Source: a virus
Lineage: Duplodnaviria; Caudoviricetes
Direction: 5' to 3' (one strand)
DNA length: 57,421 nt
Virus record (IMG/VR): IMGVR_UViG_3300031566_000036
Span: 1 to 57,421 of that record
Positions within the stretch are counted from its first letter, which is position 1; each line of letters begins with the position of its first letter. The notes below the pieces were generated by a model that had not been told where the DNA came from, searched no databases, and saw nothing but the letters and a program-made list of their open reading frames with translations. Positions 6,553 to 49,290 of this stretch are shown here, one piece after another. The position numbers were made by a program, and so were the translations under genes.

Positions 6553-7480
6553 TTTCAAATCCCTTTCGTAATACCGGTGAAAAGATTACGTTCTCATCAT
6601 GACCAAACTTTCGAGCACAACACGACACTAAATCGTATAGCATTCCTTCGCCCAATGAACGTTGTTCTGCGATTCCGTTAAGCCCGTTTCGATACCTGCC
6701 TTCAGCACACAACGCAGTTTGGATTTGTGAACGCCAAACTCCGATGTCTCGCGGCCAGTCATGTCGTAAGTCTATGTTAGCGCGATACTGCCGACCTATG
6801 GGAACAAGCAGTGATTCTTTGGCAGCTTGCCAATTCTTTTCGTACAGATGCATGCTACCAACTTGATGCGTGTAGGTTCCGTACTTAACATTTAATGCAT
6901 CGGCGATTAATCGCTGCAAACAAGTAAATGCGAATATATCGTACGGTGTACCGAGCCATGCATCATTGCTACGCATTGTAGCAATTAAATGTAATGCACC
7001 ATTCCGTATCAAAAATTGTAGGCTCATGGTACATGGCAAGTCTTTATGGTCAGCAAGATATGCGTGCTCTAAGTCACTACCTTGCCAAAATGAAATAAGC
7101 GCTTGCCGTGAATTCGGATTTTTATGCAAAACATCAATCAATAAACTAAGTTGATTGAACTGTTTTATTCGAGCGCCGTACGCGCCAAACGCAACGCCAT
7201 CTTCTGCGAAATTTACGTACTGCGGCGCATATGCAATTAACATTTCGATTTTACCCGTGCCCGATAAGTACCACAGTGTTTCAGCCGCGGCATACATTGG
7301 TGACAGTTTACGTCGTGGGTTTAATAAAAACGTTGACTCAATATTTAGTAACGTCGCACTATACCCAGTGACTTCTTTTATTTGCCCCACGCGACTTGGC
7401 ATTTCCCGTCCCGTCGCAATGATATTATGAACTACGTTTAACCATAATTCATCAATGTTACTGTACGCATTATTTCCCAT
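6539..7480 (-). CDS. Thymidylate synthase-family enzyme, dCMP hydroxymethylase-like
   Basis: SRQA, DLPCT, MRSNDAWLGTPYD, SMHLY. Asp at the position where dUMP-specific ThyA has Asn (PFN). Confidence 0.85.
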   Translation of the reverse strand: MGNNAYSNIDELWLNVVHNIIATGREMPSRVGQIKEVTGYSATLLNIESTFLLNPRRKLSPMYAAAETLWYLSGTGKIEMLIAYAPQYVNFAEDGVAFGAYGARIKQFNQLSLLIDVLHKNPNSRQALISFWQGSDLEHAYLADHKDLPCTMSLQFLIRNGALHLIATMRSNDAWLGTPYDIFAFTCLQRLIADALNVKYGTYTHQVGSMHLYEKNWQAAKESLLVPIGRQYRANIDLRHDWPRDIGVWRSQIQTALCAEGRYRNGLNGIAEQRSLGEGMLYDLVSCCARKFGHDENVIFSPVLRKGFENAKK

Positions 7481-13439: not shown

Positions 13440-14054
13440 TTATTCGTTTACTGCTACTTCAAAAGCCTCATCCTCCTTTCCTAATTCTTTATAGGCTTTT
13501 TCAAAGTTAACTAATAACTCGTCCAAGTCACGTTTAGAGCGTATTACTAAAGAATAAGTTGGGTACGTGTTTTCTGGGTCGATGCCCGGCGGTAATGGCT
13601 TACCTTCTTCAGCAAGCACTGAAACGATTTCACAAATCGCAGGCCAATGCGGTCTTACTGCTCTGTCAGTTAATGAGCTTAGCTCAATGCCAAAGTAATT
13701 CATTAACGCTTCAAATTCTTCAGGGTTTCTTTCACGATGTGGAAGTTTAACTGATAACTTCATCGAAGGTGAGCCGGTTGCTAATGAAGCGCGAATCGGC
13801 TTTCCTTCTGCTTGCGTTAAGTACACTACGCAAACCACTTGCTCGAGGATATACACAATGCCATCGGCCTCTTTACGTAGGTCATTTGCGAGCTTTGAAA
13901 TTTCACGTGAAACATGCACAAGATTAACAAGATCCTCCATACTGTACTTGCCACTCTTCGCTTCATCACGTATGTATGCTAATTGCTCATAGCCCGAAAG
14001 ATACGTCGCTTTCATTTTGCCGTACTCTTGTAATAGTTTTAATAGTACTTTCAT
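13440..14054 (-). CDS. Hypothetical protein (replication module)
   Basis: 204-aa ORF with RBS. Confidence 0.75.
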   Translation of the reverse strand: MKVLLKLLQEYGKMKATYLSGYEQLAYIRDEAKSGKYSMEDLVNLVHVSREISKLANDLRKEADGIVYILEQVVCVVYLTQAEGKPIRASLATGSPSMKLSVKLPHRERNPEEFEALMNYFGIELSSLTDRAVRPHWPAICEIVSVLAEEGKPLPPGIDPENTYPTYSLVIRSKRDLDELLVNFEKAYKELGKEDEAFEVAVNE

Positions 14055-14059
14055 TTGTC

Positions 14060-14266
14060 CTATCCTTTCCTTTTTGATTTTCCAAATCCCATAGAATTAA
14101 TTTCTGTATTTTCAATTACTTCGCATTCTTCAACGTATCTCGAAGCTGGGTCCCCATTATGATCCAAATATACAAAAGTATAGTTTTTGTTATCTTTGTG
14201 TATCTTAGTTAGTATTCCTTTTATTCCCGTAAAATGAACGATGCTATCACCGACCTTGTACTTCAT
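14060..14266 (-). CDS. Small hypothetical protein (SH3/KOW-like start MKYKVGD)
   Basis: 68-aa ORF flanked by 20-bp direct repeats. Confidence 0.7.
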   Translation of the reverse strand: MKYKVGDSIVHFTGIKGILTKIHKDNKNYTFVYLDHNGDPASRYVEECEVIENTEINSMGFGKSKRKG

Positions 14267-14271
14267 TTGTC

Positions 14272-14598
14272 CTATCCTTTCTTAAAAGTTTTTGAAATAT
14301 ACACGCCTTCGATACTGTTAAATAATAATACTGTAAACGTCTCATGACTTTGTGCGATTGCTATAATACTATTTATCATAATTAGCACCGCGCCCACGAT
14401 GCAAATGTAATCATCTTCTGGATTGTAGTCAAGCTCTTTAAGACGCCCTAACACTGTTCGGCCAAACTTCTTATGGTCCCATGCGCTACAACGTCTATCG
14501 TCTTTATCAAATAGATAAACTATTTGACCGAAGTCTTTAGCCTTTGATACGTCGATATTATTTCGAGGATGCTCAATTATAAAAACTTTTTTACTCAT
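14272..14598 (-). CDS. Hypothetical protein
   Basis: ORF overlapping the helicase stop; start probably MSKKVF. Confidence 0.7.
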   Translation of the reverse strand: MSKKVFIIEHPRNNIDVSKAKDFGQIVYLFDKDDRRCSAWDHKKFGRTVLGRLKELDYNPEDDYICIVGAVLIMINSIIAIAQSHETFTVLLFNSIEGVYISKTFKKG

Positions 14599-16700: not shown

Positions 16701-16729
16701 ATTATACAATATTGATAGTCACTTGTAAA
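16701..16729 (-). promoter_or_regulatory. Sigma70-type promoter for the replication operon
   Basis: TTTACA-17 bp-TATAAT with upstream TTATTTTTTTG tract. Confidence 0.8.
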
Positions 16730-16750
16730 CAAAAAAATAAAATATTTTGA

Positions 16751-16827
16751 AAAATAAATAATGAGCACACAACTCAGAGTTTGGCGAGCAAAATCACTAT
16801 TGGAAAGGACCTGAGTGCGCGCTCATT
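16751..16827 (-). terminator. Long-stem, large-loop terminator-like RNA with anti-RBS loop
   Basis: AAUGAGC-GCGC-A-CUCAG / CUGAG-UU-GUGU-GCUCAUU stem, 33-nt loop, U-rich tail AUUUAUUUUU. Confidence 0.7.
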
Positions 16828-17410
16828 TAAGCAAAGATTTATTCTTTCGAACTTCACGAGAAGCTTGAAAATGTACGATGATTGGACTTTCAACTTTCTC
16901 ATTCATTGTTTCGTTTATCATACAGTACTCAGGAGGGAGATGATAAAAGTCATCATGTAATATTTTCGCCAAAGACTTTTGGTCCCACACCCGCGGGTTC
17001 TTTTCACATTCTTTTGCCCACTCATCGACAATGCCACGAACTTTTTCATTATTTCTTAAGTAAACCGTTCCGCTTAATACCTCTGCTGGGCATTTCGAGT
17101 TTCTTTGGTACAGCTTACGCTCAAACAAATGAACTGCAACATCACCGTCAAGTGTATCAAATAAAATAGGGTAGGCGCGGAACTCTGCGTCGCAGTCTAC
17201 CCATACAATATCGGTCTCTGGGAAGGCCTTCAAACATGCTGCTAAGAAGGTTGGCTTATAGCATGTATTTTTATACCAGTCCTTTAAGTTAGGGACCCCA
17301 CTGACATGATGGAGGATGCTATGCCGCCTTAAAGACTTCACGAAGTGCTCAGCGTACCGTGCATAAAAAGTTCCGAGTGTATAGTAACTAACTACCATCC
17401 ATTTATTCAT
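16823..17410 (-). CDS. Nucleotide-diphospho-sugar transferase (GT-A fold)
   Basis: KPTFL, WVDCD (DxD), SGTVYL, WDQ, IVHFQASR. Confidence 0.75.
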   Translation of the reverse strand: MNKWMVVSYYTLGTFYARYAEHFVKSLRRHSILHHVSGVPNLKDWYKNTCYKPTFLAACLKAFPETDIVWVDCDAEFRAYPILFDTLDGDVAVHLFERKLYQRNSKCPAEVLSGTVYLRNNEKVRGIVDEWAKECEKNPRVWDQKSLAKILHDDFYHLPPEYCMINETMNEKVESPIIVHFQASREVRKNKSLLK

Positions 17411-17780
17411 TTCGACTCCATGCCCAATCATAAAAGAAATATAGAATTAACTTTGATTGAATGTATGTTAAAGTTATCCACGTCATTTGTTTAACGTCAC
17501 CTGTGACAAAATATGTAATCAGTCCAAGAATGACATTACCTAAAATAACTTCGTAAGTAATGGCTTTGATTGCATATTTGAGTTTAGGTGTCATTTTAGA
17601 TTTTGACCATGCTCGTTCATGTAAGTAAAACACTACAAGGAAAATTCCGTGATGTATCAGTGTAGTCAATGACATTTGTATCCAGTTTCTTGTAAATGCA
17701 TATGTTATTCCAGCTAACCAAAATACACCAATGACTCTCCACATTACGCTTTTTAATATTGACTTTTTATGACTGTCCAT
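17403..17780 (-). CDS. DUF2061-like membrane protein (two repeats)
   Basis: SILKSVMWR..YLHERAW, then AIKAITYE..FFYDWAW. Confidence 0.7.
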   Translation of the reverse strand: MDSHKKSILKSVMWRVIGVFWLAGITYAFTRNWIQMSLTTLIHHGIFLVVFYLHERAWSKSKMTPKLKYAIKAITYEVILGNVILGLITYFVTGDVKQMTWITLTYIQSKLILYFFYDWAWSRNE

Positions 17781-18180
17781 TTTTAATCTCCTTTTTAATG
17801 TGCGTTGAAGAATGTTCAGGAAAATACGGTATACAAATAATACGACCATTCAAATCATTCATCGCTTGCTCAACTTTAGACTCAGGAACATGACTATCAC
17901 TCTCCATTAATATATCTGGCTTTAATGCTAAAATATTTTTTAACGGTGAGTACTCTTTTTGTGCTACAACTAAATCAATGTGTTTAACGCTTCTTGCTAA
18001 TTCGACACGTTCTTCAAACGATATAATGGGTTTTGGCTTTTTCTCCATCGCAGCTTTATCTGTTAAAATACCAACAATCAAACGCCCATCAGGGCCGGCC
18101 ATTGCTTTAGCATTTTGTAGCATTTCTAAATGACCTTTGTGAACGATGTCTAAAACATAGTAAGAATAAACTATAATCAT
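17767..18180 (-). CDS. Cytidylyl/adenylyltransferase (HxGH family)
   Basis: DIVHKGH, LIVGILTD, FEER, HSSTHIK. Confidence 0.85.
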   Translation of the reverse strand: MIIVYSYYVLDIVHKGHLEMLQNAKAMAGPDGRLIVGILTDKAAMEKKPKPIISFEERVELARSVKHIDLVVAQKEYSPLKNILALKPDILMESDSHVPESKVEQAMNDLNGRIICIPYFPEHSSTHIKKEIKNGQS

Positions 18181-19193
18181 TTTACCCACTCAAAATTTAA
18201 CTTTAATTGCTCTACAATGTTTTCGTCAACTCCAGACTCAAACATAAACGTCAGTTCATGATTAAAATAGCTATAGTTTCTTTGAATAAACTTATCGTCT
18301 GGCTCGTGATAAGTTACGTACTTGAAAATAGGGTTTAAGTATTTACAAGCGATTGCTGTTGTTGATTTTTTAGAGTCAATATTTAATCTACAATCCTCAG
18401 TAAAGTAAAAATCATGAATAGGCCAGTCATTATGTACTGCGTAATAATAAAAATCTGTTGCACTGATAAAGTTTGACATGGGCAATACTCTCGCAGGCCT
18501 ATTGTCTTTTATCACTGCCCAAGTTACAAAGTTGTGTTCTTGCGGATAACCTCCAAGCTCAGGAAAACGCCAATGCCCATGGTCACTGAACACCCAAAAT
18601 AACGCGTCAGGCTCATTAAAATTCCAAAGGCCTAAAATCTCTAAGAAATACTTACTTGCTTTTCTTTGTCGAACTTTTAAGTCACTCTCATCCATACTTA
18701 ATTCACAAGCGTCGTGTGCGTGTACGTAATTCAATACGTACATTACATCTTCGTCGCTTGCTTGAATTTTTTCAATATATCTTTGTTGCGAATCAATATC
18801 ATAGTCTACATCGACTCGCGTATAAATGTTTTGATGCCTTAAATACCCAAAGCACCCGCAAAGAGTTGCAGGATTCATCACTTCAAGTTTACAGTTTAAT
18901 TTGAATGGCACTGTATCTTTAAGCCATGACCAATTTGGCAGCGCTTGCTGCGGGCGGTTTATCATTAGCCCGACTGCCTTTGTTACATCTTCGCATGCAT
19001 CCATCCAACTCGTATATCCAATGCCGTGTGATTTTAATTCAGATGAGTGTTTACCAGTGAGCATCTGAGTCATTGTCTCTATCGTAGCACAACCACCTAT
19101 TTGCCTTACCAAGTGACCGCTAACTTTATCCCGCATTTGAAAAACTTCAGAACAAAATGGTAAGCCATCAAATTTTATACAATATATTTTCAT
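18177..19193 (-). CDS. Alkaline phosphatase/sulfatase-superfamily protein
   Basis: N-terminal IKFDG, MLTG, HAHD, FSDHGH. Confidence 0.65.
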   Translation of the reverse strand: MKIYCIKFDGLPFCSEVFQMRDKVSGHLVRQIGGCATIETMTQMLTGKHSSELKSHGIGYTSWMDACEDVTKAVGLMINRPQQALPNWSWLKDTVPFKLNCKLEVMNPATLCGCFGYLRHQNIYTRVDVDYDIDSQQRYIEKIQASDEDVMYVLNYVHAHDACELSMDESDLKVRQRKASKYFLEILGLWNFNEPDALFWVFSDHGHWRFPELGGYPQEHNFVTWAVIKDNRPARVLPMSNFISATDFYYYAVHNDWPIHDFYFTEDCRLNIDSKKSTTAIACKYLNPIFKYVTYHEPDDKFIQRNYSYFNHELTFMFESGVDENIVEQLKLNFEWVK

Positions 19194-19843
19194 TCTTTAA
19201 TTGCAAGGCAATCTCCAGTTATAACATACATATTAGTTTTAAAGTCGCGCCAATGTAAAATTTCAACACTGCTTTCATCATATACTTTAAAACCGTGCGA
19301 GTTTAATAATTCCCATATCTGTTGAAAAGAAATTCCCGCATCGTAAAAGCAAGCACCATATTCAAACTGTACATAATCAATGCGACCTTCATTTAGCATG
19401 TCTTTTGCACCTTCAAGCACAAATAATTCGTTGCCTTCAACATCTATTTTAAGAAAGTTTATTTTAAGTATGCCACGCTCTTTACAATACTCGTCTATCG
19501 TTGTTACATCTATAACTATTTCGTTGGGCTTTAAACTATGTAGCATCTCTAATTCTGAGCTACGCCTAAACTCTGTAGATAGTCTTGGCTCAGACGGGTA
19601 ATAGTAAAAGCAAGTTTGACCAATCCTATTTGACAATGCTAATTTATTATGAATTGCGTTCGTTGTTTTTAATACTTCAAATGAAAAGGGCGACGGCTCA
19701 AACTGATGAATCACTACATCTTCATGGCATTGCAACACCTCGTTGGTCCACTCGCCTACACAAGCGCCGACATCAAACACAACATCATTTGATTTGATAT
19801 ACCGTTCAATGTTTAAAATTTCATTATTTGAAATCGTTGGCAT
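19190..19843 (-). CDS. FkbM-family methyltransferase
   Basis: VFDVGACVG, FEP, LKIDVEGNE, QFEYG. Confidence 0.9.
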   Translation of the reverse strand: MPTISNNEILNIERYIKSNDVVFDVGACVGEWTNEVLQCHEDVVIHQFEPSPFSFEVLKTTNAIHNKLALSNRIGQTCFYYYPSEPRLSTEFRRSSELEMLHSLKPNEIVIDVTTIDEYCKERGILKINFLKIDVEGNELFVLEGAKDMLNEGRIDYVQFEYGACFYDAGISFQQIWELLNSHGFKVYDESSVEILHWRDFKTNMYVITGDCLAIKE

Positions 19844-20394
19844 TATAGTACCTTTGCTAAAATTATATCTTTTGGAAAGTGTGAACTGTCGATGTTTGTT
19901 ATTTCATACGCGGGATTTATTTCTTTGAGCTTTGCGACTATCGTCTCTTCATGAAGATTGTGCCAAGTAGGCTTATCTCCAGTAAAGATGCGTCGGTCGT
20001 CAATAAGAATCGTATGAGTTTTAATCGGATGATTTTTAATCGCTTCCAACTCTTGTAGCACAGGTTGCGCTTCTGTTAAAATTTCTGGGTTGTCTGACTC
20101 TGGAATGTTCGCGTCATAATGCGCATCAAGCCAAAATAAAATAGGATCGTTTATATTTTTTAATAATTCGGCTAAAACCTCACCACTGTTTCCTTGAAGT
20201 ACTTTCACGTAAGCTACGCTTTTGAATCTTGCACGACATCGCCCGAGTCTGTTCGCGTAAAACTCAATACTGTAAATAGAGTTAAACCCAGCATCGACGG
20301 CCGCTTGAATTCCGTCGCCGATATACGAACCTGTTTCAATGAAAGTTTTTATACTTCCCTTATGTGCCTTAAATATTTCACTTGTCACTGGCAT
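19843..20394 (-). CDS. SAM-dependent methyltransferase-like protein
   Basis: FIETGSYIGDG, SIE, GNS, FWLDAH, ILIDD. Start MPVTS. Confidence 0.7.
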   Translation of the reverse strand: MPVTSEIFKAHKGSIKTFIETGSYIGDGIQAAVDAGFNSIYSIEFYANRLGRCRARFKSVAYVKVLQGNSGEVLAELLKNINDPILFWLDAHYDANIPESDNPEILTEAQPVLQELEAIKNHPIKTHTILIDDRRIFTGDKPTWHNLHEETIVAKLKEINPAYEITNIDSSHFPKDIILAKVL

Positions 20395-20404
20395 GTGTTT
20401 CCTT

Positions 20405-21091
20405 TCATAAATGAATGTAAGTGTGTAATTTTGAATGACGGAACATTGATAAAGCTCCATCGACATAAAGAACTGTTGAAGGTTTTCTTATTGCTGCGGC
20501 TAAAGTAATAGAGCCAGTAAGCACACCATAAAAGTGCTTGCACGAATATATAATATCACAAAGGTGACACAAATTATCCGCATGAATAGTTTTAACATCG
20601 AATGGCGCGCTTTTCCGAAAAAGTGACTTCATTTGGTGTGTTACTGCTACGCTGTTATTCTTAAAATACGTTCTGAGTGTTTTTTGATTCGGGATTCCTT
20701 TGCCACTAAAACTATTCCATTCTAAAATTATTGCATCTTTTAATTCGGGTATCAATTTTGGCTTGTAGTAAACCTCAGGTTCTTGAAAACGAATGCCTGT
20801 ATCGGGCACTCCATAAAAGTCAGACACTGCATCGAGAAGATTTTTACCTTCAGTTACTTCCCCGAATTGTGGGTATATAACATCATCATCAACAAACCCG
20901 TCAAAGAATGGATTTAATTCCCATACTAAATGTTTTGTTTCTGGGTTCAAAAACTTTGAAGAGTTAGTCACTACGACTTTGTCAAACACACCACTCTCTT
21001 TTGCAACACGAGGTAGGTGTGACATAAACAAATGGTCACCGAGTCCGCCGTATGGATTTTTAATAACTAATGTTTTAATTTTTTTACCCAA
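20405..21091 (-). CDS. Glycosyltransferase-like protein (GT9-like)
   Basis: GGLGD at the N-terminus; G..TG..LAAA..KPS at the C-terminus. Confidence 0.6.
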   Translation of the reverse strand: MGKKIKTLVIKNPYGGLGDHLFMSHLPRVAKESGVFDKVVVTNSSKFLNPETKHLVWELNPFFDGFVDDDVIYPQFGEVTEGKNLLDAVSDFYGVPDTGIRFQEPEVYYKPKLIPELKDAIILEWNSFSGKGIPNQKTLRTYFKNNSVAVTHQMKSLFRKSAPFDVKTIHADNLCHLCDIIYSCKHFYGVLTGSITLAAAIRKPSTVLYVDGALSMFRHSKLHTYIHL

Positions 21092-22053
21092 TAATTCAGT
21101 AAGTCACTCATAGTTGTTTCTAACGAGTATTGTTGTTGCCAATCAATTACACTTTTTAATCGAGTGAGGTCACCAATTTGAATCTCAATATCAATCGGTC
21201 GATAAAATGGTTTATGTATAACTTGCTCAATACCTTTCAATCCGGATGCTGCGATTAGCAAATCAGTAAAATGCTGCATCTCATGAACGCCTTCACCGCA
21301 AACATTATAAACTCCGCGGATTCTTTTTGACATAAGTAAGTAATATGCGTTTACGCAATCTCTAACGTCCATTACTACTCTTTTTGTTTTGAGATTTCCA
21401 ATTAACAGTTTATAATTAAATCCTTGCTGCCCGTTCATCATCTTTGCAATTTGAAACGCGTCACTGCTTATCGAAAAGTTATGCCCGCGCCTTGGACCCG
21501 TGTGACTAAAGGCCCGCGTGATAAAACCTGAGATGATTCCATTTCTTATTCGCTCTTGCACGTATAGGTCCATCGCAGCTTTACTAACGGCGTACGGATT
21601 TATGGGATGCAACGCCATGTCTTCTTTTAATAATCCAACTGTTTTACAGTCGTTGCCGTATACTTCAGATGTAGAGCAGAAATGGAAGTGACACGTAGTC
21701 TGTGTTTTCTCTATTGCATCAATTAAATTCGCTGTTCCCATCACGTTTGAATTAAAAGTGTCTATTGGATTTTTGAAACTTGTAGGTGGATGACTCTGTG
21801 CGGCTAAATGAAAAACGCCATCTAACTCAATTTCAGACAATGCTTGCCGTATTGATGCATAATTTGTCAAGTCACCATATACCCAATTGATTGTATTTAT
21901 TTCGTGGGCGCTAAGAATGTCTAACAAGTCCATTTCTCTGCCGTTGCTGCCACGAATCAGACCATAAACTTTATCGCCTTTACTTAATAGGAGTTTAGCT
22001 AAGTGCGGTCCTGCAAATCCAGTGGTGCCCGTAATTAAATAGTTCATTATCAC
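21067..22053 (-). CDS. GDP-mannose 4,6-dehydratase / NAD-dependent epimerase
   Basis: ITGTTGFAG, HLAAQS, STSEVYG, YAVSK, DVRD. Confidence 0.9.
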   Translation of the reverse strand: MIMNYLITGTTGFAGPHLAKLLLSKGDKVYGLIRGSNGREMDLLDILSAHEINTINWVYGDLTNYASIRQALSEIELDGVFHLAAQSHPPTSFKNPIDTFNSNVMGTANLIDAIEKTQTTCHFHFCSTSEVYGNDCKTVGLLKEDMALHPINPYAVSKAAMDLYVQERIRNGIISGFITRAFSHTGPRRGHNFSISSDAFQIAKMMNGQQGFNYKLLIGNLKTKRVVMDVRDCVNAYYLLMSKRIRGVYNVCGEGVHEMQHFTDLLIAASGLKGIEQVIHKPFYRPIDIEIQIGDLTRLKSVIDWQQQYSLETTMSDLLNYWVKKLKH

Positions 22054-22784
22054 TTTCCAAAAATAAAGTTATTGTTGCATGCTACAATCGATGATTCATT
22101 TCCTTCTACAAACTCAACGTCGTTCAACCCAACTTTGTTTCCGACTACTGGACTGTATACTTTGTTCTTATTAAAAAATCCCGCCCAAAAACTAAAAGTT
22201 GAATTTGCTCTAAACAAATGTTCAGCACTTATCATTTCAAAAAAGTCCGGCAAAAACATTAAGTCACCGTCTAAGTCTCGCCATTTCACTTGCGTTTCTT
22301 CCGTCTTTAAAAAAACATCATGTTCTCGAACACCAAACTTTTCAAAAGCTCTTTGATATGATAACATAGACACAATACAAAAAACATTCGCGTATAAAGT
22401 CTGGTAGTCACCGCGTCGCATGTGAGCAACAGCATATGACTTTAAATTAACAAAGTACTCAAGCCACTTATCTTGGAACGTAAACCATTCACGAAGTTTA
22501 GCCTCAGATAAAATATTTATGAATTCTTGTTTTTGAAAATAGCCGAACAAATCAATATTGACTTCGCCAAATAGAACTTTATCAACTGGTGTTCTTTTAA
22601 GACGCTTAGAGATAGGCCGATGCGAAACGTTCTTAAAAATCTTTTCGCCAATCCAGCTTGGAATTTCTAAAGTACAGTTATACTTTTCAGCGTACGCTCT
22701 TGCAAACGCGTACTGAAACATTTGATTGCCGAACCGACCAAATTTTCCTAACTGCGTAAATTGTATTATGTTATGCGCCGACAT
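22050..22784 (-). CDS. Alpha-1,2-fucosyltransferase-like protein (GT11)
   Basis: GRFGNQMFQYA, GYFQ, HMRRGDY, NSTFSFW. Confidence 0.85.
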   Translation of the reverse strand: MSAHNIIQFTQLGKFGRFGNQMFQYAFARAYAEKYNCTLEIPSWIGEKIFKNVSHRPISKRLKRTPVDKVLFGEVNIDLFGYFQKQEFINILSEAKLREWFTFQDKWLEYFVNLKSYAVAHMRRGDYQTLYANVFCIVSMLSYQRAFEKFGVREHDVFLKTEETQVKWRDLDGDLMFLPDFFEMISAEHLFRANSTFSFWAGFFNKNKVYSPVVGNKVGLNDVEFVEGNESSIVACNNNFIFGK

Positions 22785-23355
22785 CGATTAATGAACCCTC
22801 TGTACGGTTATGATTAAATGCGCTCTTTTTCATTAGGCAATAATTAAGTTGCCGGTATAGAAATAAATCCCACGGCGTCCCATCATATTCATACTGAACT
22901 AATTCCTCAACAACTCTTCGAGGGATTAAGTACGCTAACGCAGCGACAATCCATTCTGAACCTCTGTTCTTCGGTTTTATAAAGTCGGCATTAACTGCAT
23001 CAAAAATCTCTGGAATAAAACCTCGCCCATGAAATGAAACCATTTCAAATGTTTCAAGTAACTTGACTGAGTCACTAACAACTTTTAACCAATCCTCTCT
23101 ATTCGGAACCGCATCATCTTCAAAAACTAAAATCGCATCTTTTGTTGATTTCGCAATCGCATCTTGGTGTCCGCGTAAACATCGCCAAGCTCCGAGATGA
23201 TTTTGAACTAACCCACCAACTTTAGGTTTGAAGTGTGGATTTAATTCGTAGTCAGGTGTAACGCTAACGATAGCATCAAGACCGTCGAGGTATTGCGTGA
23301 TTAATGGCTTTCGTTTTGCAGATGTCACTACTACGATGTCGAAGTTATCAGGCAT
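22771..23355 (-). CDS. Glycosyltransferase (GT25-like)
   Basis: GAWRCLRGH, LVFEDDA, AYLI..D. Confidence 0.7.
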   Translation of the reverse strand: MPDNFDIVVVTSAKRKPLITQYLDGLDAIVSVTPDYELNPHFKPKVGGLVQNHLGAWRCLRGHQDAIAKSTKDAILVFEDDAVPNREDWLKVVSDSVKLLETFEMVSFHGRGFIPEIFDAVNADFIKPKNRGSEWIVAALAYLIPRRVVEELVQYEYDGTPWDLFLYRQLNYCLMKKSAFNHNRTEGSLIDVGA

Positions 23356-24181
23356 AGAGTTCCTTAACCATGTTGGAGATGTCACTGTTTATAATGTTTG
23401 CGAGTTCAATAATTTGTGAAGGCTGTGCATCGTACGGTTGCCCTGTAAAACTTGGGGCAATCGAATTGCTATACACAAGCGCATCGATGTTGCACTCAGA
23501 GGGCCTTACATTTTCGTACTCACTCTCTTTTACTAATACTGCTGGGTAGCCCACAATTGTTAATGGCGCGGTTAACTGCGGGCAGTCCATTGAGTACTTA
23601 TAAAATCCGCACGCTCCGAAAAAGTCTCGGAGTAACGCTTGGTCGCAACCCCAGTCCCAGTTCTTACACTTATCAATGTGCTTCGCACCCCACTCTAAAT
23701 AACATTGAAACGTTGGCGCTGCGCCTATGATTTTTGGCTTTACTTTTTGGCACTTAAACTCGCATAGCCCAGCCATGTATGGGACGGTATGTAAATGATA
23801 CGCTCGAATGCTATGTATAAAAGTTTCATCATGAAAGCCAAACCATTCTGTAGCTCTTCTCTCTCTTAAGCTTGTTATTGAATCCAAGTCCCGGCATAGC
23901 AAAAGTCCAACGTCGTCTTCCCATATTGGTTTTACGCGATAGCAGGTTAACTTCGTTCCTACAATCGGCTCATCGATTATCTCTATCTCGACTAACTCAG
24001 GAAACTTTTCTGCGAGTGACACTATGAATGGGTAAAATCTCGATGCCTTTCCACTCTCGTGTAAGTATAGCCGAGTGACGAACCCTTGATATATCGCAGA
24101 GTTCGCAATGATTGCATACGTTAAATCAATCCACCGCTTATCTTCGTCACCCCATAGTACATATGATATTACATTTTTCAT
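23348..24181 (-). CDS. Glycan-related hypothetical protein (possible glycosyltransferase)
   Basis: VISYVLWG, RDLDS..RE, DQALL; lies within the sugar cluster. Confidence 0.55.
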   Translation of the reverse strand: MKNVISYVLWGDEDKRWIDLTYAIIANSAIYQGFVTRLYLHESGKASRFYPFIVSLAEKFPELVEIEIIDEPIVGTKLTCYRVKPIWEDDVGLLLCRDLDSITSLRERRATEWFGFHDETFIHSIRAYHLHTVPYMAGLCEFKCQKVKPKIIGAAPTFQCYLEWGAKHIDKCKNWDWGCDQALLRDFFGACGFYKYSMDCPQLTAPLTIVGYPAVLVKESEYENVRPSECNIDALVYSNSIAPSFTGQPYDAQPSQIIELANIINSDISNMVKELYA

Positions 24182-24843
24182 TTTGGAAATCCTGCCGCCT
24201 TTCGTCGTTGATAAGTTACTTTATCCGGTGAGCCCATGCTTGAGTTTCGTCGATACAAATCGTCCTTGTTTTTTCCATCACCTTTCCATTCATGCTTAAT
24301 GACCACGAATGAATCGTAGTGACAACGCTTTAACGCATAAACTACATCAGTGAATTCATTATCACAAAAGAAACTTTTATAGTCAGGATGATATACATAA
24401 CCAAACCTTTCGTACATCTTCCTTCCCATTATCGACAAAGTGATAGTTCGGTCTTCTCCAAGAAACCCATCGTTGAAATGCAATGCGCCATCGGTATCGG
24501 GGTAATGCATCCTCATCATTTGAGCGATTGTGTGGTCGAAGTTTTTAGCCGCTGGAATCATGTCATCAGAAACTAATACTAAAATATCCCAGTCTTTAAC
24601 AAGTTCCATATCTGCGTTGCAAGCTGCAATCTTATTTGCATTTCTTCCAAAGTTATAAACTAAGTTTGGCATTTTATCCATGAACGTCCTCATCGTCGGA
24701 TTGTTCATAAGATCATCGTCTATATCACACGTTACCAAAAACTCAAAGTCGCAATGCTTGCTCATCATACCATAATAAGTGAGAAGAGTATTCTTGAACC
24801 AATTCGGTCGAGCTCTTGTTGGATACTTGAAAAGAATTTTCAT
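24178..24843 (-). CDS. Glycosyltransferase (GT2-like)
   Basis: PTRAR, DIDD, KIAACN, SDDM, FCDNE. Confidence 0.75.
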   Translation of the reverse strand: MKILFKYPTRARPNWFKNTLLTYYGMMSKHCDFEFLVTCDIDDDLMNNPTMRTFMDKMPNLVYNFGRNANKIAACNADMELVKDWDILVLVSDDMIPAAKNFDHTIAQMMRMHYPDTDGALHFNDGFLGEDRTITLSIMGRKMYERFGYVYHPDYKSFFCDNEFTDVVYALKRCHYDSFVVIKHEWKGDGKNKDDLYRRNSSMGSPDKVTYQRRKAAGFPK

Positions 24844-24847
24844 TTTC

Positions 24848-25408
24848 TTAGCTTGCATAATAGTAATAAAGCGTCCCAGATATTTTCTCTTCTGTTTTTA
24901 ATAATGAAAACACTTGCGTGGAAAAATCATAATCCTCGCCCATGTTTTTACGGGCAAACCCGACTTGCAATGCGATGCTTCGCTTTATTGAGTTTAAATG
25001 ATTCGGACACCGATAATAAATTCCGTTGTTTGAAAACCAATGGTCATACTCAATTGAATGCTTAAAAATATCTGTCTGCATTTTCTTAGCATTCTTTGGG
25101 CCCATCATGTGTTCAATCTCACCTTGTAGACTACAACAGTCGGGTTTTGTTTTTATCGCGGCTAAAATTTTACTGATGTAATCGTCACTCACTAAATCAT
25201 CGTCATCAACAAATGCTACGTAGTCACCCGTTGCTCGTGACAATAATTTATTTCTTTTTTCTCCGATGGTCATTTCGCGATTGTCGATTTCAGTAATGAT
25301 TTCGACTTCATCAGACATTTGAACTTTCAAATGTACTAATAACCTGTGCAAAAGTTTTGCACGTTCGGTTATAGAACAAATTAAAATTGACAATCGTTTA
25401 TGCATCAT
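24848..25408 (-). CDS. Glycosyltransferase family 2
   Basis: LSILICS, GEKRN, YVAFVDDDD, GED. Confidence 0.88.
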   Translation of the reverse strand: MMHKRLSILICSITERAKLLHRLLVHLKVQMSDEVEIITEIDNREMTIGEKRNKLLSRATGDYVAFVDDDDLVSDDYISKILAAIKTKPDCCSLQGEIEHMMGPKNAKKMQTDIFKHSIEYDHWFSNNGIYYRCPNHLNSIKRSIALQVGFARKNMGEDYDFSTQVFSLLKTEEKISGTLYYYYAS

Positions 25409-25508
25409 CCATGTCCTTTCCAAGAGGTTTTGATGAGAATGTATATAATTATATGGTTGGTTATCTTTAAGTCATCTACGGGTCTTCCAGGGCGCTTAAA
25501 CCTCGTGT

Positions 25509-26126
25509 TTATAGTGGTTCATATGGGATGGTTGAATTTAACCGGCTTATCTTCGACCGACTAATCACTTTAATACTTGTTTGGTCTTTCAAAATGTTTA
25601 ATGCAAGTACAAAATTCTTATAGAACTTTTCAAACGCGTTAGCAGAAATTTGTTTAGTCGTCCCGTAATATTGATGATAGTATTTTCCACCCATATCAAA
25701 GCCCAATAAATGAATTTCATCGTATCCTAATAACACGGCTAATTGCAGCGCACAAAACCCACTGTTGTATCCCGTTCTAAAATCACTAAATGAAAAACCA
25801 ATTCCTTCAACGCCCGCATTACGAATCACCATGTTCATACAAAACAAGTTATATACGAACCCATCTTTATGCACAAACTTCCCATCGCGAAATTTCATTG
25901 AGCAATGTTCGGGATTCGTAACTAAAACCCATGTAGTATTAACGTCTTTGAAACGGCCCTCTTGCACTCTACGAAATATTGAAGAATCTGCAGTAATACA
26001 ATATGTTGGATTTGGCACGTCGAGCGCTGAAACATTTACAGCGATTGTGTCCTCGTTTTTTAATTTACTAAAGTCATAACCACTTAAACTTTTTCCACCA
26101 CCTACAATATATACTTTCCTGACCAT
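25509..26126 (-). CDS. DUF115/MptE-like (GT-A-related) protein, paralog 1
   Basis: IVGGGKSL, IAVN, NSG..ALQLA..LG..IHLLGFD. Confidence 0.7.
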   Translation of the reverse strand: MVRKVYIVGGGKSLSGYDFSKLKNEDTIAVNVSALDVPNPTYCITADSSIFRRVQEGRFKDVNTTWVLVTNPEHCSMKFRDGKFVHKDGFVYNLFCMNMVIRNAGVEGIGFSFSDFRTGYNSGFCALQLAVLLGYDEIHLLGFDMGGKYYHQYYGTTKQISANAFEKFYKNFVLALNILKDQTSIKVISRSKISRLNSTIPYEPL

Positions 26127-26136
26127 CGAATTCTCC

Positions 26137-26367
26137 AACTTTATACAGTGAAACTTTGATGCAATTTTCTAATCGGTCGGGAACTACCGAAATCTCTATT
26201 TATTTATATTGATATAACCATATATAAATACAGTAATTAAAAATGCTTTGTTATTATTATTATTATTATATATTATATAGTTATCAAACAATATCGAAAG
26301 ATAAATAACAAAACTGGAATTCTCTGTTCAATTTGAAAATTGCACAACTGTTTCACTGTATAAAGTT
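26137..26367. repeat. 33-bp inverted repeats flanking an AT-rich core (candidate replication origin)
   Basis: AACTTTATACAGTGAAAC-N5-TGCAATTTTC at 26137-26169 and its inverse at 26335-26367. The core contains a (TTA)n run. Confidence 0.8.
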
Positions 26368-36234: not shown

Positions 36235-36573
36235 TTACTTTCGTTTAATGCCTAAGAATCCTAACCATCTACTTTTTGAAGCTTCTGTTTTCTGCTCTAA
36301 CTTTTGCTTAACAAGAGTTTTTTCATCTACGAACTTAATTACGAAGTCACTCACCTTTGTCTTTCGTATTTCTGACTGCTTAATCCATGAGCGTCGAACT
36401 TCAGCCGTAAGCTGTGCAATGTACATGTAAAGTGCGCTAAATCTATTCGGCTCTTCATTTAAGTATACAATCCAGTCAGTAAATTCTAATGAGCTCGTAG
36501 TCCGTTTTACATATTGAATAGGTGAATGAAGATGAGAGGCTAAACGGAACCAGCTTAACCTCTCACCCGTCAT
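36235..36573 (-). CDS. Tail assembly chaperone, frameshift extension (gpT equivalent)
   Basis: Lies in the -1 frame relative to the upstream chaperone, just before the tape measure gene. Confidence 0.75.
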   Translation of the reverse strand: MTGERLSWFRLASHLHSPIQYVKRTTSSLEFTDWIVYLNEEPNRFSALYMYIAQLTAEVRRSWIKQSEIRKTKVSDFVIKFVDEKTLVKQKLEQKTEASKSRWLGFLGIKRK

Positions 36574-36914
36574 TCGTTTTTTGCTTCTTCCTTCGACTTC
36601 TCAGACAAACCGTTAATGTCTTGAGCTGCATCAAATAAAGCACTTAGGACTACTGCTGGAAACTTTGATACCTCTGCTTCGGGAACCTGCTTACCTTCTG
36701 AATCAAGCAAGCACATACTGACGAGCTTCGACTGCACACCCGTGAACTTTTTGGTCTTTCCTTCGCCCATTCTTTCGTTGACAAAGTCAAACCACTCGTC
36801 GCGTCGTTGACCGTCGAAACCCGACAGTACATAATTTTTTGGTATGCCATCTTTGTCTGTTAAAGTCACAGGGTTAAACGGTAATACTAACGAAAAATCT
36901 AATGCCTTACTCAT
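36570..36914 (-). CDS. Tail assembly chaperone (gpG equivalent)
   Basis: Between tail tube and tape measure genes; ends EAKNE over A AAA AAC. Confidence 0.8.
   Translation of the reverse strand: MSKALDFSLVLPFNPVTLTDKDGIPKNYVLSGFDGQRRDEWFDFVNERMGEGKTKKFTGVQSKLVSMCLLDSEGKQVPEAEVSKFPAVVLSALFDAAQDINGLSEKSKEEAKNE
36576..36582 (-). other. -1 programmed ribosomal frameshift site A AAA AAC
   Basis: GCA AAA AAC GAA TGA; a -1 slip reads on into R-M-T-G-E-R of the next ORF. Confidence 0.8.
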
Positions 36915-36945
36915 CTTACTAAATCCTTTCCAATATTAAAGTGGG

Positions 36946-37389
36946 TTATGCTGCCGCAGTGTAATCAGGTGCCGTCTCTACACCGGCGTCAGTCTGATTG
37001 CTCGGGACAATTGTTACTGTCGCTGTAGGTTGCTCGCCTTCAACGATGTTGCCCGGTATGAACTTATCAAGCCATCCGTAAAAGGCTACAGTCGATGTGT
37101 CCGGGAACGTGATAGTAATAAGCTGGTTATCTTTAATCATGTCTACAATATCATCGTAGAACTTCGCGTCGTAGCTTACGACTAAGGTCATCGGCGTCAT
37201 TGTGATAAGTTTCTTTGGTGCCTTTGTTCTGTACAAAGTGTTTCTCATCGTCGTTGTGTCAGTTTCGCCGCCAGCGTCCATCCCAGGAGGAGTTATTTCT
37301 TTCTCCCAAAACGTTATGCCGGGGCCTGTTCCACTTCCTTGGTCTCCGAACGCGATAGTCGTTGCGAAGCCGTCATCAATTCTACTCAT
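36946..37389 (-). CDS. Major tail (tube) protein
   Basis: ITPPG.D.G..DTT, ITITFPD..F.G; synteny. Confidence 0.8.
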   Translation of the reverse strand: MSRIDDGFATTIAFGDQGSGTGPGITFWEKEITPPGMDAGGETDTTTMRNTLYRTKAPKKLITMTPMTLVVSYDAKFYDDIVDMIKDNQLITITFPDTSTVAFYGWLDKFIPGNIVEGEQPTATVTIVPSNQTDAGVETAPDYTAAA

Positions 37390-43496: not shown

Positions 43497-44075
43497 TTAT
43501 TTATTTCCTTTCTTCGGTGACATTTCAACCGAATCATCTTTTCTCTGCTCAGGAAGTTTGGCCGGAATAACGGGCTTTCCTTTTTTGTCCTTGCGAGGCT
43601 CCAGTATCATCTCAATACAACCGTTCAAAGAGAACACGCTCCTGACTATCTTCCACGGCAGAGGCTTCTTGTAACTGCAACTATGCCACAGTTGAAAGTC
43701 AGGATCAAAGAACTGGAACGTTGCCTCATTGGGACACATATAGTGTGCAGGATGAGCGGCTTCTAAATAACTACCAGCATAAGGACAACTTAAAAGCAAC
43801 TGTCCATCATGCCTGCAAATTCGCCACAGTTCATCCATCACTGCAAACCTATACTTCGGCTCTATGTGTTCCCAGATATGCGACATCAAAACCTGAAAGC
43901 AACTGTTATCAGGCACAGGCCACGGGAATTGTTGGATGTCGTGAACTATATCAACGCCGGGTTGCTTGTACTGGTCTAATCCAACAAATCCCTTCTGCTT
44001 AAATTGCCCACAGCCTATATCAAGTTTGATACCACTGGCCTTCTGGAATAAAGCCCTGTTTATTCTCTTTGCCAT
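43497..44075 (-). CDS. Class I SAM-dependent methyltransferase
   Basis: LDIGCG, VGLD, SHIWEH, ELWRI...G. Confidence 0.85.
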   Translation of the reverse strand: MAKRINRALFQKASGIKLDIGCGQFKQKGFVGLDQYKQPGVDIVHDIQQFPWPVPDNSCFQVLMSHIWEHIEPKYRFAVMDELWRICRHDGQLLLSCPYAGSYLEAAHPAHYMCPNEATFQFFDPDFQLWHSCSYKKPLPWKIVRSVFSLNGCIEMILEPRKDKKGKPVIPAKLPEQRKDDSVEMSPKKGNK

Positions 44076-44104
44076 CAGCCAAAATGTCCTTTCCATTGTC
44101 TATC

Positions 44105-45737: not shown

Positions 45738-46136
45738 TCAAGCGGGATTATAATCGTTGTCGCCGAGCCAAGATACCTGAACCGTTTGACCCGTGCCTTT
45801 TTTCATTTGTGCGTTTAACGCGGCCAGTCCGCCCTTAGTATCTAACCTCATTGCCATCTGACCGTAATGCGAAGTATCAAATCCTAAACCAATCATTGAT
45901 TGTTTTCTTTCAGATACTGTACCGGCCCTTTCCTCTGAAGCACGCATGTCCCTGATAGTATAAACGTGAGCCGACAACCACCGCTCGATTAACTCTAAGC
46001 GAGTTGCGTCATAATCATCAGCGCTACAACACTCGGTAACTAACGCATTCGCAACTTCAATAAATGAAGTCAAGCTAATGTCATCATCAACGTCAATGAT
46101 TAATGCAACGGCGGCGGATGTCGTTCTCACGGCCAT
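45738..46136 (-). CDS. Head-tail adaptor protein
   Basis: WLSAH, G.VS, T.YGQ motifs; start MAVRTT. Confidence 0.75.
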   Translation of the reverse strand: MAVRTTSAAVALIIDVDDDISLTSFIEVANALVTECCSADDYDATRLELIERWLSAHVYTIRDMRASEERAGTVSERKQSMIGLGFDTSHYGQMAMRLDTKGGLAALNAQMKKGTGQTVQVSWLGDNDYNPA

Positions 46137-46138
46137 AA

Positions 46139-46267
46139 TTATTTCCTTTTGAATAAACGCCAAACTTTTGCTATTGGAACGAATATAACAGCGATTATCA
46201 CTTTACCAATAGCATCTACAGCTTTTTCACCGGTACTTAGCTTCGGATTTTGCTGTACACTGCCCAT
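46139..46267 (-). CDS. 42-aa membrane peptide (MGSVQQNPKLSTGEKAVDAIGKVIIAVIFVPIAKVWRLFKRK)
   Basis: Below the ORF-track cutoff. Fills the gap exactly; one hydrophobic helix and a basic tail. Confidence 0.55.
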   Translation of the reverse strand: MGSVQQNPKLSTGEKAVDAIGKVIIAVIFVPIAKVWRLFKRK

Positions 46268-46852: not shown

Positions 46853-47098
46853 TTACTTCGGGCCGTATTTGTCAACACCTTTTCGAAGGTCGAGCCCTGT
46901 TACAACTTTAAGAACTTTGAACCAACCAGTAATTTTTGCAACGGCAGCGTCGTCTTTCTTTGTCTTAGTGAATTTAACAATGACCCTTGCAACGATTAGC
47001 AAGGCACCAATGACTGCAGCTATTTCTGTAACGCCAATTTGAATCTGCACATCCGGCGCTTCAATAGACTGGGCGAGAATGAATAAGCTAAGCAACAT
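46853..47098 (-). CDS. Holin-like membrane protein
   Basis: TM segment followed by TKTKKDD; GAAAGGA RBS. Confidence 0.55.
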   Translation of the reverse strand: MLLSLFILAQSIEAPDVQIQIGVTEIAAVIGALLIVARVIVKFTKTKKDDAAVAKITGWFKVLKVVTGLDLRKGVDKYGPK

Positions 47099-47729
47099 GA
47101 GTTTTCCTTTCATCCCAAAATGTGTCACATGCAACTTTTGGAAATAAGTCTAAATCGCTATTATCAGTGACATTGATTATTTCACAGTTAAAGACTCCAC
47201 TTTTTAATGCAATACTTAAATGCATGAATCCTTCAAGAAAGTCAGCATACACATTTTTGTTAGACCGTTTATTCAGTTGACTATGCCAATTAGCTTTTCC
47301 GTCTTTTGAAAGATGCATGTCAAACCCAAGAAGAAAAACACGACGAGCTCCGAGAATCAATGCTAAATTAACAGCTGAAGCGCCGGTGTTTTTATTCCAC
47401 GCAAGTTTACTTCTACTCAAGCCAGTTGACTTTCGTTGTAGTGTCCAAAGCCAAGGAACTTTTGTATGATAAAGTCTTCTGGCATTAGTAAATACTACGC
47501 CGCCGTTATTAGCGTACTGTGCTAATTTTGACTCATGCTCATTGAACCAAGCGACATCGCCGAACACACAAAGCTTGCAAATTGTCGGTCTTAACATATA
47601 CGCGTCATTACAACCGATGGTGCGTTCACCTAAAAGAAGATTCCAATCAAAGTTTCTTAAAGAGTCACCGCCACCGATTATAAAAACGTCTTGGTCCTGC
47701 CAATCATTTGTTGGTCGCCATATCGGCAT
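47088..47729 (-). CDS. DUF115/MptE-like protein, paralog 2
   Basis: VFIIGGGDSL, TIGCN, NTG..A.NLA..LGA..LLGFDM. Confidence 0.7.
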   Translation of the reverse strand: MPIWRPTNDWQDQDVFIIGGGDSLRNFDWNLLLGERTIGCNDAYMLRPTICKLCVFGDVAWFNEHESKLAQYANNGGVVFTNARRLYHTKVPWLWTLQRKSTGLSRSKLAWNKNTGASAVNLALILGARRVFLLGFDMHLSKDGKANWHSQLNKRSNKNVYADFLEGFMHLSIALKSGVFNCEIINVTDNSDLDLFPKVACDTFWDERKTHVA

Positions 47730-48182: not shown

Positions 48183-48222
48183 TTGTTAAGTCCTTTCCAA
48201 AAACTTTTCGCCAAACTATTTA

Positions 48223-49290
48223 CTATGCAACGTTGCCGTGCACGATGCCGGTGTTTCCGTTAAAGTCACCTCGGATCTGCGGAACGATGATGCACATGAT
48301 TTTGAAGTTCTTTTGCATGCCGCCTTTGGTATCCCACTGTAGTGTTGTAATGTCCATGCCAACGACTACACGAACGATGTCACTGGTCATCTGAACCATC
48401 ACGACCTGATAGCCTGTCAAGAAGTCAAGGGTTTGAATGTCAGTGATACCACTCAAAGCTTTGACCCGTTCACGGAGAGTCTTATCTGATGCTGCTTTGA
48501 AGTCACCATCGAGATAAATGTCCCAACCGGGAGCGACGTACAACATCCATGGGCCGTAATGATACGCCGCGACACTGGATGCTCGCATTGTCATGACTTC
48601 ATTCAAGAATGTTGCAGCGGTCCAACCAGCTCCAGTAGGATTGGTAAGTACCTGAGTCAGTCGACCAGTGAAGTTTGTAAGACCTACAACTTGTCCCGCA
48701 CCAAATGCAAGACCGGTCGTAACGCCGAGCGTGATTTTCTCAACTGACTCACCGACTTTTCGAGCGCCGAGTTCAGCCGATGAAGTGTCGAGAGGCGAAC
48801 CACCATTTCGTGAAGTCAGAAGTTGACGCGCACTAAACATGAAGTCTTTGTGCGTGATGGGTAACGGCAAAACACCCAGCTCATATTCGGGCCTGTCATC
48901 AGGGCTCTCCCTCAGACCGTCCATACTTACAACGGCATCATTGACGTCGCCTTGCGTCTCAGTCTCAAGGACTGTTTTGCCCATGCCTTGCGGAATGGTG
49001 AATGTAAGTCCCATGCCACGAATGTCGGCGACCAATTTCAGGCGTTCTTTTGCGGCTTTAACAATCGCGTCATCGAGATACTTCCACTCATCTTTGCGAA
49101 GAGTCGCATGCGTGTTATGAACGGGCGTAACTTCCACGCGCCCCAACGCACTGACTCGCGTAACGTACGTTCCGCCGTCGTTCCCGATGAACGGCCGAAG
49201 AACGTTCACGTCGCCATTAGCTTGAAGCAGTCTGTCGACCGGGTCTCCGCTAAGGGCGCCGAGCTGTTGATATTTCTGAAGCAAATTCAT
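48223..49290 (-). CDS. Major capsid protein (HK97 fold, Linocin/encapsulin-like group)
   Basis: 355 aa; L..DEW..LD, PLPITHKDF....R.L..SR..G.PLD, YGPW.LY; synteny. Confidence 0.85.
   Translation of the reverse strand: MNLLQKYQQLGALSGDPVDRLLQANGDVNVLRPFIGNDGGTYVTRVSALGRVEVTPVHNTHATLRKDEWKYLDDAIVKAAKERLKLVADIRGMGLTFTIPQGMGKTVLETETQGDVNDAVVSMDGLRESPDDRPEYELGVLPLPITHKDFMFSARQLLTSRNGGSPLDTSSAELGARKVGESVEKITLGVTTGLAFGAGQVVGLTNFTGRLTQVLTNPTGAGWTAATFLNEVMTMRASSVAAYHYGPWMLYVAPGWDIYLDGDFKAASDKTLRERVKALSGITDIQTLDFLTGYQVVMVQMTSDIVRVVVGMDITTLQWDTKGGMQKNFKIMCIIVPQIRGDFNGNTGIVHGNVA

Follow-up and report, generated by a model that had tools for sequence, protein, structure and literature searches.

The c4 antisense RNA of phages P1 and P7 pairs with its target through two short separate stretches, one of which covers a ribosome binding site (RBS), and these stretches differ between related phages and so change specificity. 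It is processed from the transcript of its adjacent target and, by controlling an antirepressor, acts in immunity. The element described here, a terminator-like hairpin with a large loop, resembles c4 in being a candidate phage RNA directed at the phage's own mRNA by two-part pairing that includes an RBS, with specificity that appears to differ between relatives. In contrast to c4, its putative targets are in the virion module, 20 and 31 kb away, rather than adjacent in one operon, and its pairing sequence is in the loop of a terminator-like hairpin that has no match in Rfam, a collection that includes a c4 model. The comparison shows an element that would work like c4 and would not be a member of the c4 family.

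Certain bacterial small RNAs, such as CpxQ, SroC and DapZ, are derived from 3′ UTRs or embedded in terminators, and they are host RNAs that act on host mRNAs; their seed is usually single-stranded and 5′ of the terminator. Here too the putative regulator is the 3′ end of a coding transcript, shares its terminator and may overlap the end of the coding sequence, but the seed is inside a terminator loop of 23–48 nt and the proposed targets are those of a phage. Staphylococcus RNAIII, the Rsa RNAs and the anti-Shine-Dalgarno (anti-SD) motif of the icaR 3′ UTR are host RNAs in which a C/U-rich word, with a short UCCC-type seed, blocks initiation at the SD. A C/U-rich anti-SD word in a hairpin loop or 3′ UTR is common to them and to the present element, whose candidate seed is longer, through flanks peculiar to each lineage and a second block, and has genes of a phage structural module as its targets. 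Intrinsic (Rho-independent) terminators usually have loops of 3–8 nt. The stable stem that closes a unit just before the next promoter is as in such a terminator, with a U content 3′ of it that varies among copies; the loop of 23–48 nt with its conserved word is not. The c4 RNA is dealt with, with the reference Citron and Schuster 1990, in a review (PMC12197685) in whose excerpted text the targets of phage-encoded RNAs are chiefly in lysogeny, the host and toxins. Descriptions of phage RNAs that have a known target in the same phage are few, and a text search of the literature found no phage RNA aimed at the genes that follow capsid or tube genes.

The window, meaning the whole stretch of DNA analysed, is a 57.4 kb IMG/VR virus record whose long ORFs are all on the minus strand. 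Its major capsid protein (MCP) is so named from PHROG 771 and from the capsid annotations of distant phage matches; the best match, to Brevundimonas phages, is at 39% identity and so there is no cultured relative, and no DNA similarity to the window was found in cultured phages. As minus-strand RNA, the region 16827..16760 is predicted to form a stem of ~17 pairs that encloses a loop of 33 nt (Table 1), and the sequence of the loop is exactly as an earlier sequence-only reading had given it. The predicted folding energy is −25.8 kcal/mol, which 1 of 200 shuffles matched (z −3.98), and that of the plus-strand RNA is −21.0 (z −2.41). The loop has a CCUUUCC core, predicted to be unpaired with a probability of 0.88, that is the complement of the usual SD word of the phage. 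A consensus-based scan for intrinsic terminators called none at the hairpin site, Rfam gave no match at the window element with E up to 10, and there was no RNA run among the carriers in the sequencing runs searched for the sequence. The window has a single CCTTTCC on the sense strand, that of the loop, and 11 on the opposite one; the corresponding counts are 1 and 4 in both G001 and G002, and other relatives are without such bias.

Table 1. Coordinates in the window of the hairpin, its candidate targets and the genes around them
Feature	Position	Strand	Remarks
5′ arm of hairpin	16811..16827	−	overlap with TAA stop of glycosyltransferase-like gene, 16825..16823
Loop, 33 nt	16778..16810	−	candidate seed: CCUUUCC core with flanks, 16810..16798; second pairing block, 16787..16778
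3′ arm of hairpin	16760..16777	−	two G-U pairs, formed solely in minus-strand RNA
U-rich tail 3′ of stem	16730..16759	−	8 U in the first 10 nt; likely transcript 3′ end
Glycosyltransferase-like (GT) gene	16823..17431	−	PF03407, E 1.8e-5; 202 aa
Sigma-70-like promoter of downstream helicase gene	16701..16729	−	TTTACA-17-TATAAT, 11/12
Candidate target 1: spacer from capsid stop to next start, 40 nt	48183..48222	−	block 1, 48190-48200, is the SD; block 2, 48208-48217
Post-capsid gene, 147 aa	47739..48182	−	two small beta domains and a disordered linker
Major capsid protein (MCP) gene	48223..49290	−	own SD UGAAAGG
Candidate target 2: RBS of tail assembly chaperone	36924..36935	−	12 nt complementary to loop
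Tail assembly chaperone gene	36570..36914	−	PHROG 344, E 1.6e-7
Putative tail tube gene	36946..37389	−	own SD UGAAAGG, in 10/10 genomes
Candidate extra target, 11 nt	25413..25423	−	RBS of glycosyltransferase 24848..25423; not conserved
Candidate extra target, 10 nt	44086..44095	−	RBS of 43497..44096; not conserved

The five stretches that had been quoted as complementary to the loop are all present where they had been placed: 11 and 10 nt in the two blocks of the post-capsid spacer, 12 nt at the chaperone RBS, and 11 and 10 nt at the two extra candidates. The gap from the MCP stop (48223-48225) to the next ATG (48182-48180) is also 40 nt as claimed. Because the SD consensus of the phage is GAAAGGA, which occurs 16 times on the sense strand, mostly 7–9 nt before start codons, RBS matches to the SD block alone are expected and so trivial; GGAAAGGA is found seven times on the sense strand and once on the other, in this loop. 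By our own arithmetic, a 33-nt query in 57 kb is expected to give ~1.3 exact 10-mers per strand, and on the antisense side there are two matches of at least 10 nt to the loop. When the loop was scanned over 5722 sense windows the post-MCP spacer ranked first at −33.1 (mean −13.9, sd 3.8). Shuffled loops, the control that the sequence-only reading had suggested, reached that energy in 0 of 1000 cases, and with the SD block kept and the remainder of the loop shuffled 10 of 1000 reached it. Two collinear blocks within one 40-nt spacer are beyond chance. Separately, a 9-nt complement copy of the loop 3′ block is present at 46158-46166, 21 nt upstream of the likely start of 45738..46136, and the same 9-mer is also at 6732-6740, making three copies where ~0.2 are expected.

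Relatives of the helicase gene, the GT-like gene and the capsid gene are present in IMG/VR. There are 18 distinct copies of the element including that of the window, all in uncultivated phages, and each (18/18) is at the 3′ end of a gene of the same GT-like family. A hairpin downstream of that gene was present at 9 of 29 loci in a first scan and at 19 of 80 in a second, and in all 12 element-bearing records scanned there is essentially one CCTTTCC hairpin per genome, beside the GT gene and on the sense strand. The stems of the copies are without common sequence, yet each self-pairs. MAFFT was unable to align such stems, and so pairs were counted by our own scripts rather than with a covariance model: 14 copies have 175 Watson-Crick and 17 G-U pairs, at 8–17 pairs per copy, as befits the G+C-rich stem of at least ~5 pairs of a terminator, and a 5′ arm makes a mean of 11.1 contiguous pairs with its own 3′ arm and 5.9 with arms of other phages. 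The loops, of 23–48 nt, have (G/A)(U/C)CCUUUCC near their 5′ side, with the core predicted to be unpaired at a probability of 0.47–0.94 in 14 copies; a conserved and accessible seed, as expected of a small RNA, is thus apparent, the core being kept in 18 copies. Sequence comparison shows an element that is conserved and has a covarying stem. The stop codon of the GT gene in 11 genomes is before the element in four, in the 5′ arm in three, in the loop in two and in the 3′ arm in two, and from this varying position the conserved core is not a coding constraint. With the stop inside the element in 7 of the 11, ribosomes must open part of the hairpin.

The distribution of the element has limits. 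It is absent from five more distant genomes scanned and from G039, in which the GT gene is 52% identical; there is no element within the flank read at the more distant GT loci L039, L040, L042-L046, L049 and L051, nor within that read at L201, L211, L215 and L227. A scan of MAG contigs with the GT alignment gave four distant matches, and L196, the one examined, is without the element. Rfam yielded no match to the element in 17 related loci with E up to 1.

Several glycosyl- and sialyl-transferase-like genes and a cytidylyltransferase gene are in a block that runs from ~26.1 kb down to the hairpin, which accordingly closes a glycosyltransferase cluster, and from the promoter just beyond it (Table 1) the upstream unit is seen to end with the hairpin. 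L002, L013 and L015 have promoters that resemble this one. The gene downstream of the element is not always a helicase gene in relatives. This cluster (window 16800-26140) is between the tail genes and the hairpin, and a paralogous sialyltransferase-like gene is two genes past the capsid gene (window 47088-47729), which suggests virion or cell-surface glycosylation. Two further features of the surroundings were encountered. The genes that start near 14054 and 14266 (window 14054-14290) have a near-identical leader, AAAGGATAGGACAAATGAA, that includes the SD and the start codon. Just upstream of the GT-like gene on a contig of G002 (L204:435-649) there is a perfect inverted repeat of ~63 bp around a (TA)n tract, at −137.9 kcal/mol (z −20) and with sub-threshold Rfam matches to plant miRNA precursor models, that may represent a foldback element or else have arisen in assembly as an artefact.

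For pairing with the post-capsid spacer, whole contigs were used of the 10 genomes of relatives in which the element and the capsid gene are both present. In 11 of 11 genomes, these 10 and the held-out G035, the post-capsid spacer has complementarity to the loop of its own genome, and kinship among them (G012 with G029, and G000 with G010 and G035) means fewer than 11 independent events. Two or more blocks in the spacer have potential for pairing, except that G012 and G029 have instead one run of 14 bp; the SD block is 8–14 bp and the second 6–11 bp. The sequence of the second block differs among G000, G001, G004, G005, G010, G016, G021 and G024. Matched loop and spacer pairs have a mean predicted energy of −26.5 kcal/mol and mismatched pairs −21.5 (1 of 20000 permutations reaching the matched mean); masking of the SD block leaves −13.0 for matched and −8.7 for mismatched pairs (0 of 20000). 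The spacer of G035 (77 kb) has 12-nt and 10-nt perfect complements of its own loop, with a second-block word that is the same as that of G010. Covariation of the loop with its targets in related phages had been put forward as a check on the original proposal, and for this spacer the 11 genomes and the permutation tests show co-evolution.

Genome-wide rankings are less sharp. Duplex energy places the post-capsid TIR at rank 1, 1, 7, 2, 1, 4, 31, 7, 9 and 1 among the 43–90 TIRs of the respective genomes, by a program, duplexfold, that ignores accessibility and permits long internal loops, and with the loop of G016 clipped by the stem finder. In the reverse direction, by a noisy scan that used a 7-mer prefilter, the element is the top match for the spacer in 2 of 10 genomes and within the top four in 6 of 10. 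A closed loop is limited to about one helical turn unless its partner is threaded through it, and so the long duplexes of duplexfold overstate the real pairing; two short helices with unpaired linkers, the pattern seen, would be compatible with this winding limit. Pairing of loop and spacer is, on these sequence comparisons, well supported. The product of the gene that follows the spacer has no Pfam or PHROG match and no PDB fold match at E ≤ 0.001. In its family a Pro/Glu-rich linker joins the beta domains, and some relatives have a very long Asp/Glu tail.

The second conserved candidate target is at the start of the tail chaperone gene. The chaperone RBS has a contiguous complement of the loop of at least 9 nt in 8 of the 10 genomes and in 3 of 3 held-out ones, that is in 11 of 13, and in G035 it also repeats the second block. 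The flank of the SD covaries with the loop (CCAAUA with UAUUGG, CCAAAGU with ACUUUGG and CCAAAAU with AUUUUGG); the complement has a mean length of 10.4 nt in matched and 9.04 nt in mismatched combinations (9 of 20000 permutations), an excess that is absent at the tube TIR. This RBS, named as a target from the window only, is thus conserved as one and co-evolves with the loop. Complementarity kept by compensatory change, as looked for in a small RNA with genuine targets, is seen for both targets including in held-out genomes. Synteny and a model of low confidence (pLDDT 59.7) that matches the lambda tube protein gpV (E 2.2e-4) are the grounds for a putative assignment of the gene upstream of the chaperone gene as the tube gene; a sequence search and tblastn gave no match for its protein, and a search of PDB sequences gave just a chance match.

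What distinguishes these two genes from those immediately before them is one base. When SDs were classified in the 18 ortholog groups that six or more of the 10 genomes share, GGAAAGG is kept as the SD by only two, the post-capsid gene (10/10 by position, and 6/6 where BLAST maps the gene) and the chaperone gene (9/10), and UGAAAGG is likewise kept by only two, the capsid gene (9/10) and the tube gene (10/10). GGAAAGG is the exact complement of the loop core, and UGAAAGG breaks the helix at one position. The poorer match of the capsid and tube RBSs, which had been remarked on in the window, so turns out to be a conserved single-base difference. Three relatives that are without the element (G039, G017 and G023) are also without GGAAAGG at the chaperone (0 of 3).

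The interpretation as originally proposed is kept only in part. Pairing and co-evolution with the post-capsid and chaperone sites stand, and the other two sites are not conserved: the word at 25413-25423 is in 0 of 4 orthologs, and the sole ortholog found for the gene at 44086-44095, that of G001, is without it. In a neighbouring family, 25509..26138, with which the glycosyltransferase cluster begins, GGAAAGG is present in 4 of 9 genomes, and so the element may feed back on its own operon.

It is reasonably probable that the hairpin is a terminator-embedded, 3′-end-derived antisense RNA that represses the post-capsid and chaperone genes. The transcript whose last gene is the GT-like one would be closed at its 3′ end by the hairpin, in the form of a terminator-like stem and U tail, and either as an mRNA 3′ end or as a processed fragment the hairpin would display a large single-stranded loop, free to act in trans as an antisense RNA on the late mRNAs of the same phage. 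The 5′ part of the loop (GUCCUUUCC plus flanking bases) would pair with the GGAAAGG-type SD of the post-capsid and chaperone genes, and its 3′ part with another portion of the post-capsid spacer. With the SD covered, 30S subunits would be kept off and these two genes would be translated less. The genes before them, for capsid and tube as the two most abundant virion proteins, are on the same mRNAs and would escape since U in place of G at one SD position breaks the helix. Accumulation of the RNA, repression by the pairing and a purpose in stoichiometry are what we infer.

The same pairing could serve a different end, with the loop guiding the processing or protection of late mRNA rather than chiefly repressing translation, and this we regard as unlikely though deserving of attention. 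A duplex just past the capsid or tube stop could be cut by a double-strand-specific RNase or could block 3′ exonucleases, and so uncouple and stabilise the capsid and tube cistrons. It is in keeping with this that the second block starts 5–9 nt past the capsid stop in five genomes (G000, G001, G005, G016 and G024), with a duplex that would span the whole intercistronic spacer. Relatives without the element are also relevant. Of 79 capsid loci (L061-L140), 28 have GGAAAGG before the next gene, in a style of spacer that is AT-rich, and many of the other 51 have a GC-rich terminator-like hairpin directly after the capsid gene, which suggests that some structure is needed there, seemingly one that is provided in cis by such hairpins and in trans by the element in the present clade. 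Against a role in processing, the chaperone target is essentially just the SD region, and the conserved difference of G and U is within the SD, both of which point to ribosome access.

Complementarity is symmetrical and silent on which partner regulates, and it could be the late mRNAs that act, by pairing with the loop and altering the decay of the glycosyltransferase-cluster transcript or the extent of read-through into the helicase operon. The position of the hairpin, at an operon boundary and just upstream of a strong promoter, would suit such a reversal of roles. A single site would then suffice, however, whereas two late-gene sites, each centred on an SD, are kept for one loop, and the pairing is with the loop and not the stem so that termination is not obviously changed. 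This makes regulation in that direction rather improbable, and repression of the late genes by the loop is preferred.

Less likely still is that the hairpin is an ordinary terminator or stabilising structure, with an anti-SD-like word that is incidental to its loop and RBS matches that are functionless. Any CCUUUCC word would match many RBSs in a phage with GAAAGGA as its SD consensus, two of the four targets first named are not conserved, and the energy ranks are noisy. However, the core of the loop persists through 18 copies in which the stems are wholly different, covariation of the second block with the spacer is apparent even when the SD is masked (with the prediction holding in held-out genomes), and loops of the size seen here are not those of typical terminators, in line with the scan that called none.

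That the element is read as RNA from the sense strand is supported by two features of the compared copies. Oppositions in the stems of 14 copies are G-U in 17 cases and A-C in 4 (p 0.007), a count that is biased by the G-U-tolerant finder with which the ends of the element were set, and among the 10 nt past the stem a mean of 5.4 are U on the sense side, compared with 2.8 on the other (Wilcoxon p 0.0007, n=18), with several copies having just 2–4. Whole-element folding energy favours the sense strand in 5 of 14 copies and leaves the matter undecided, so it is from the U tails and the count of G-U pairs that the strand is assigned. The alternative named at the start, that the element is a plus-strand RBS of some unseen gene, is rejected along with a plus-strand small gene: a start codon is 3–13 nt after the antisense SD in just 6 of 11 copies, and the resulting frames are of 8–89 aa and unrelated among copies. 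It is accordingly very improbable that the element is something other than sense-strand RNA (inverted DNA repeats that serve recombination or inversion, an origin-like cruciform beside the replication genes, or a plus-strand RBS, decoy or small gene), for although the plus strand of the loop resembles the post-capsid leader with its SD, a GTG is 6 nt past GGAAAGG in the window, and an AT-rich stretch and the helicase gene adjoin the site, 16 of 16 genomes with a capsid and a GT gene have the two co-oriented with no inverted isomer, the loop and spacer copies differ by insertions between the blocks as crossover sites do not, the G-U excess and the sense-side U tails argue for RNA of that strand, the antisense start codon is missing in 5 of 11 copies, and the gene downstream is not always the helicase gene.

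The usual explanations for unequal amounts of neighbouring virion proteins made from one late transcript are RBS strength, terminators, frameshifting and mRNA processing. If it is true that a trans-pairing RNA picks out the genes after the capsid and tube genes, it would add a new layer to the control of virion protein amounts. A broader proposal, for the present tentative, is that in a family of uncultivated tailed phages a dedicated RNA in the terminator loop that closes a glycosyltransferase cluster sets the ratio of virion proteins made from a polycistronic late mRNA: it would silence the low-copy genes that follow the capsid and tube genes, tell them from their high-copy neighbours by one SD base, and be retuned in each lineage by a private second block. 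From an experimental perspective, this is a case from uncultured phages for which nature has already provided compensatory-mutation evidence, and its parts are few: a single short hairpin, a pair of targets that are short as well, and one base that tells genes apart. If the proposal is true, this would be the first phage small RNA regulon aimed at the stoichiometry of virion assembly, and it may couple the genes for virion glycosylation to the assembly of heads and tails.
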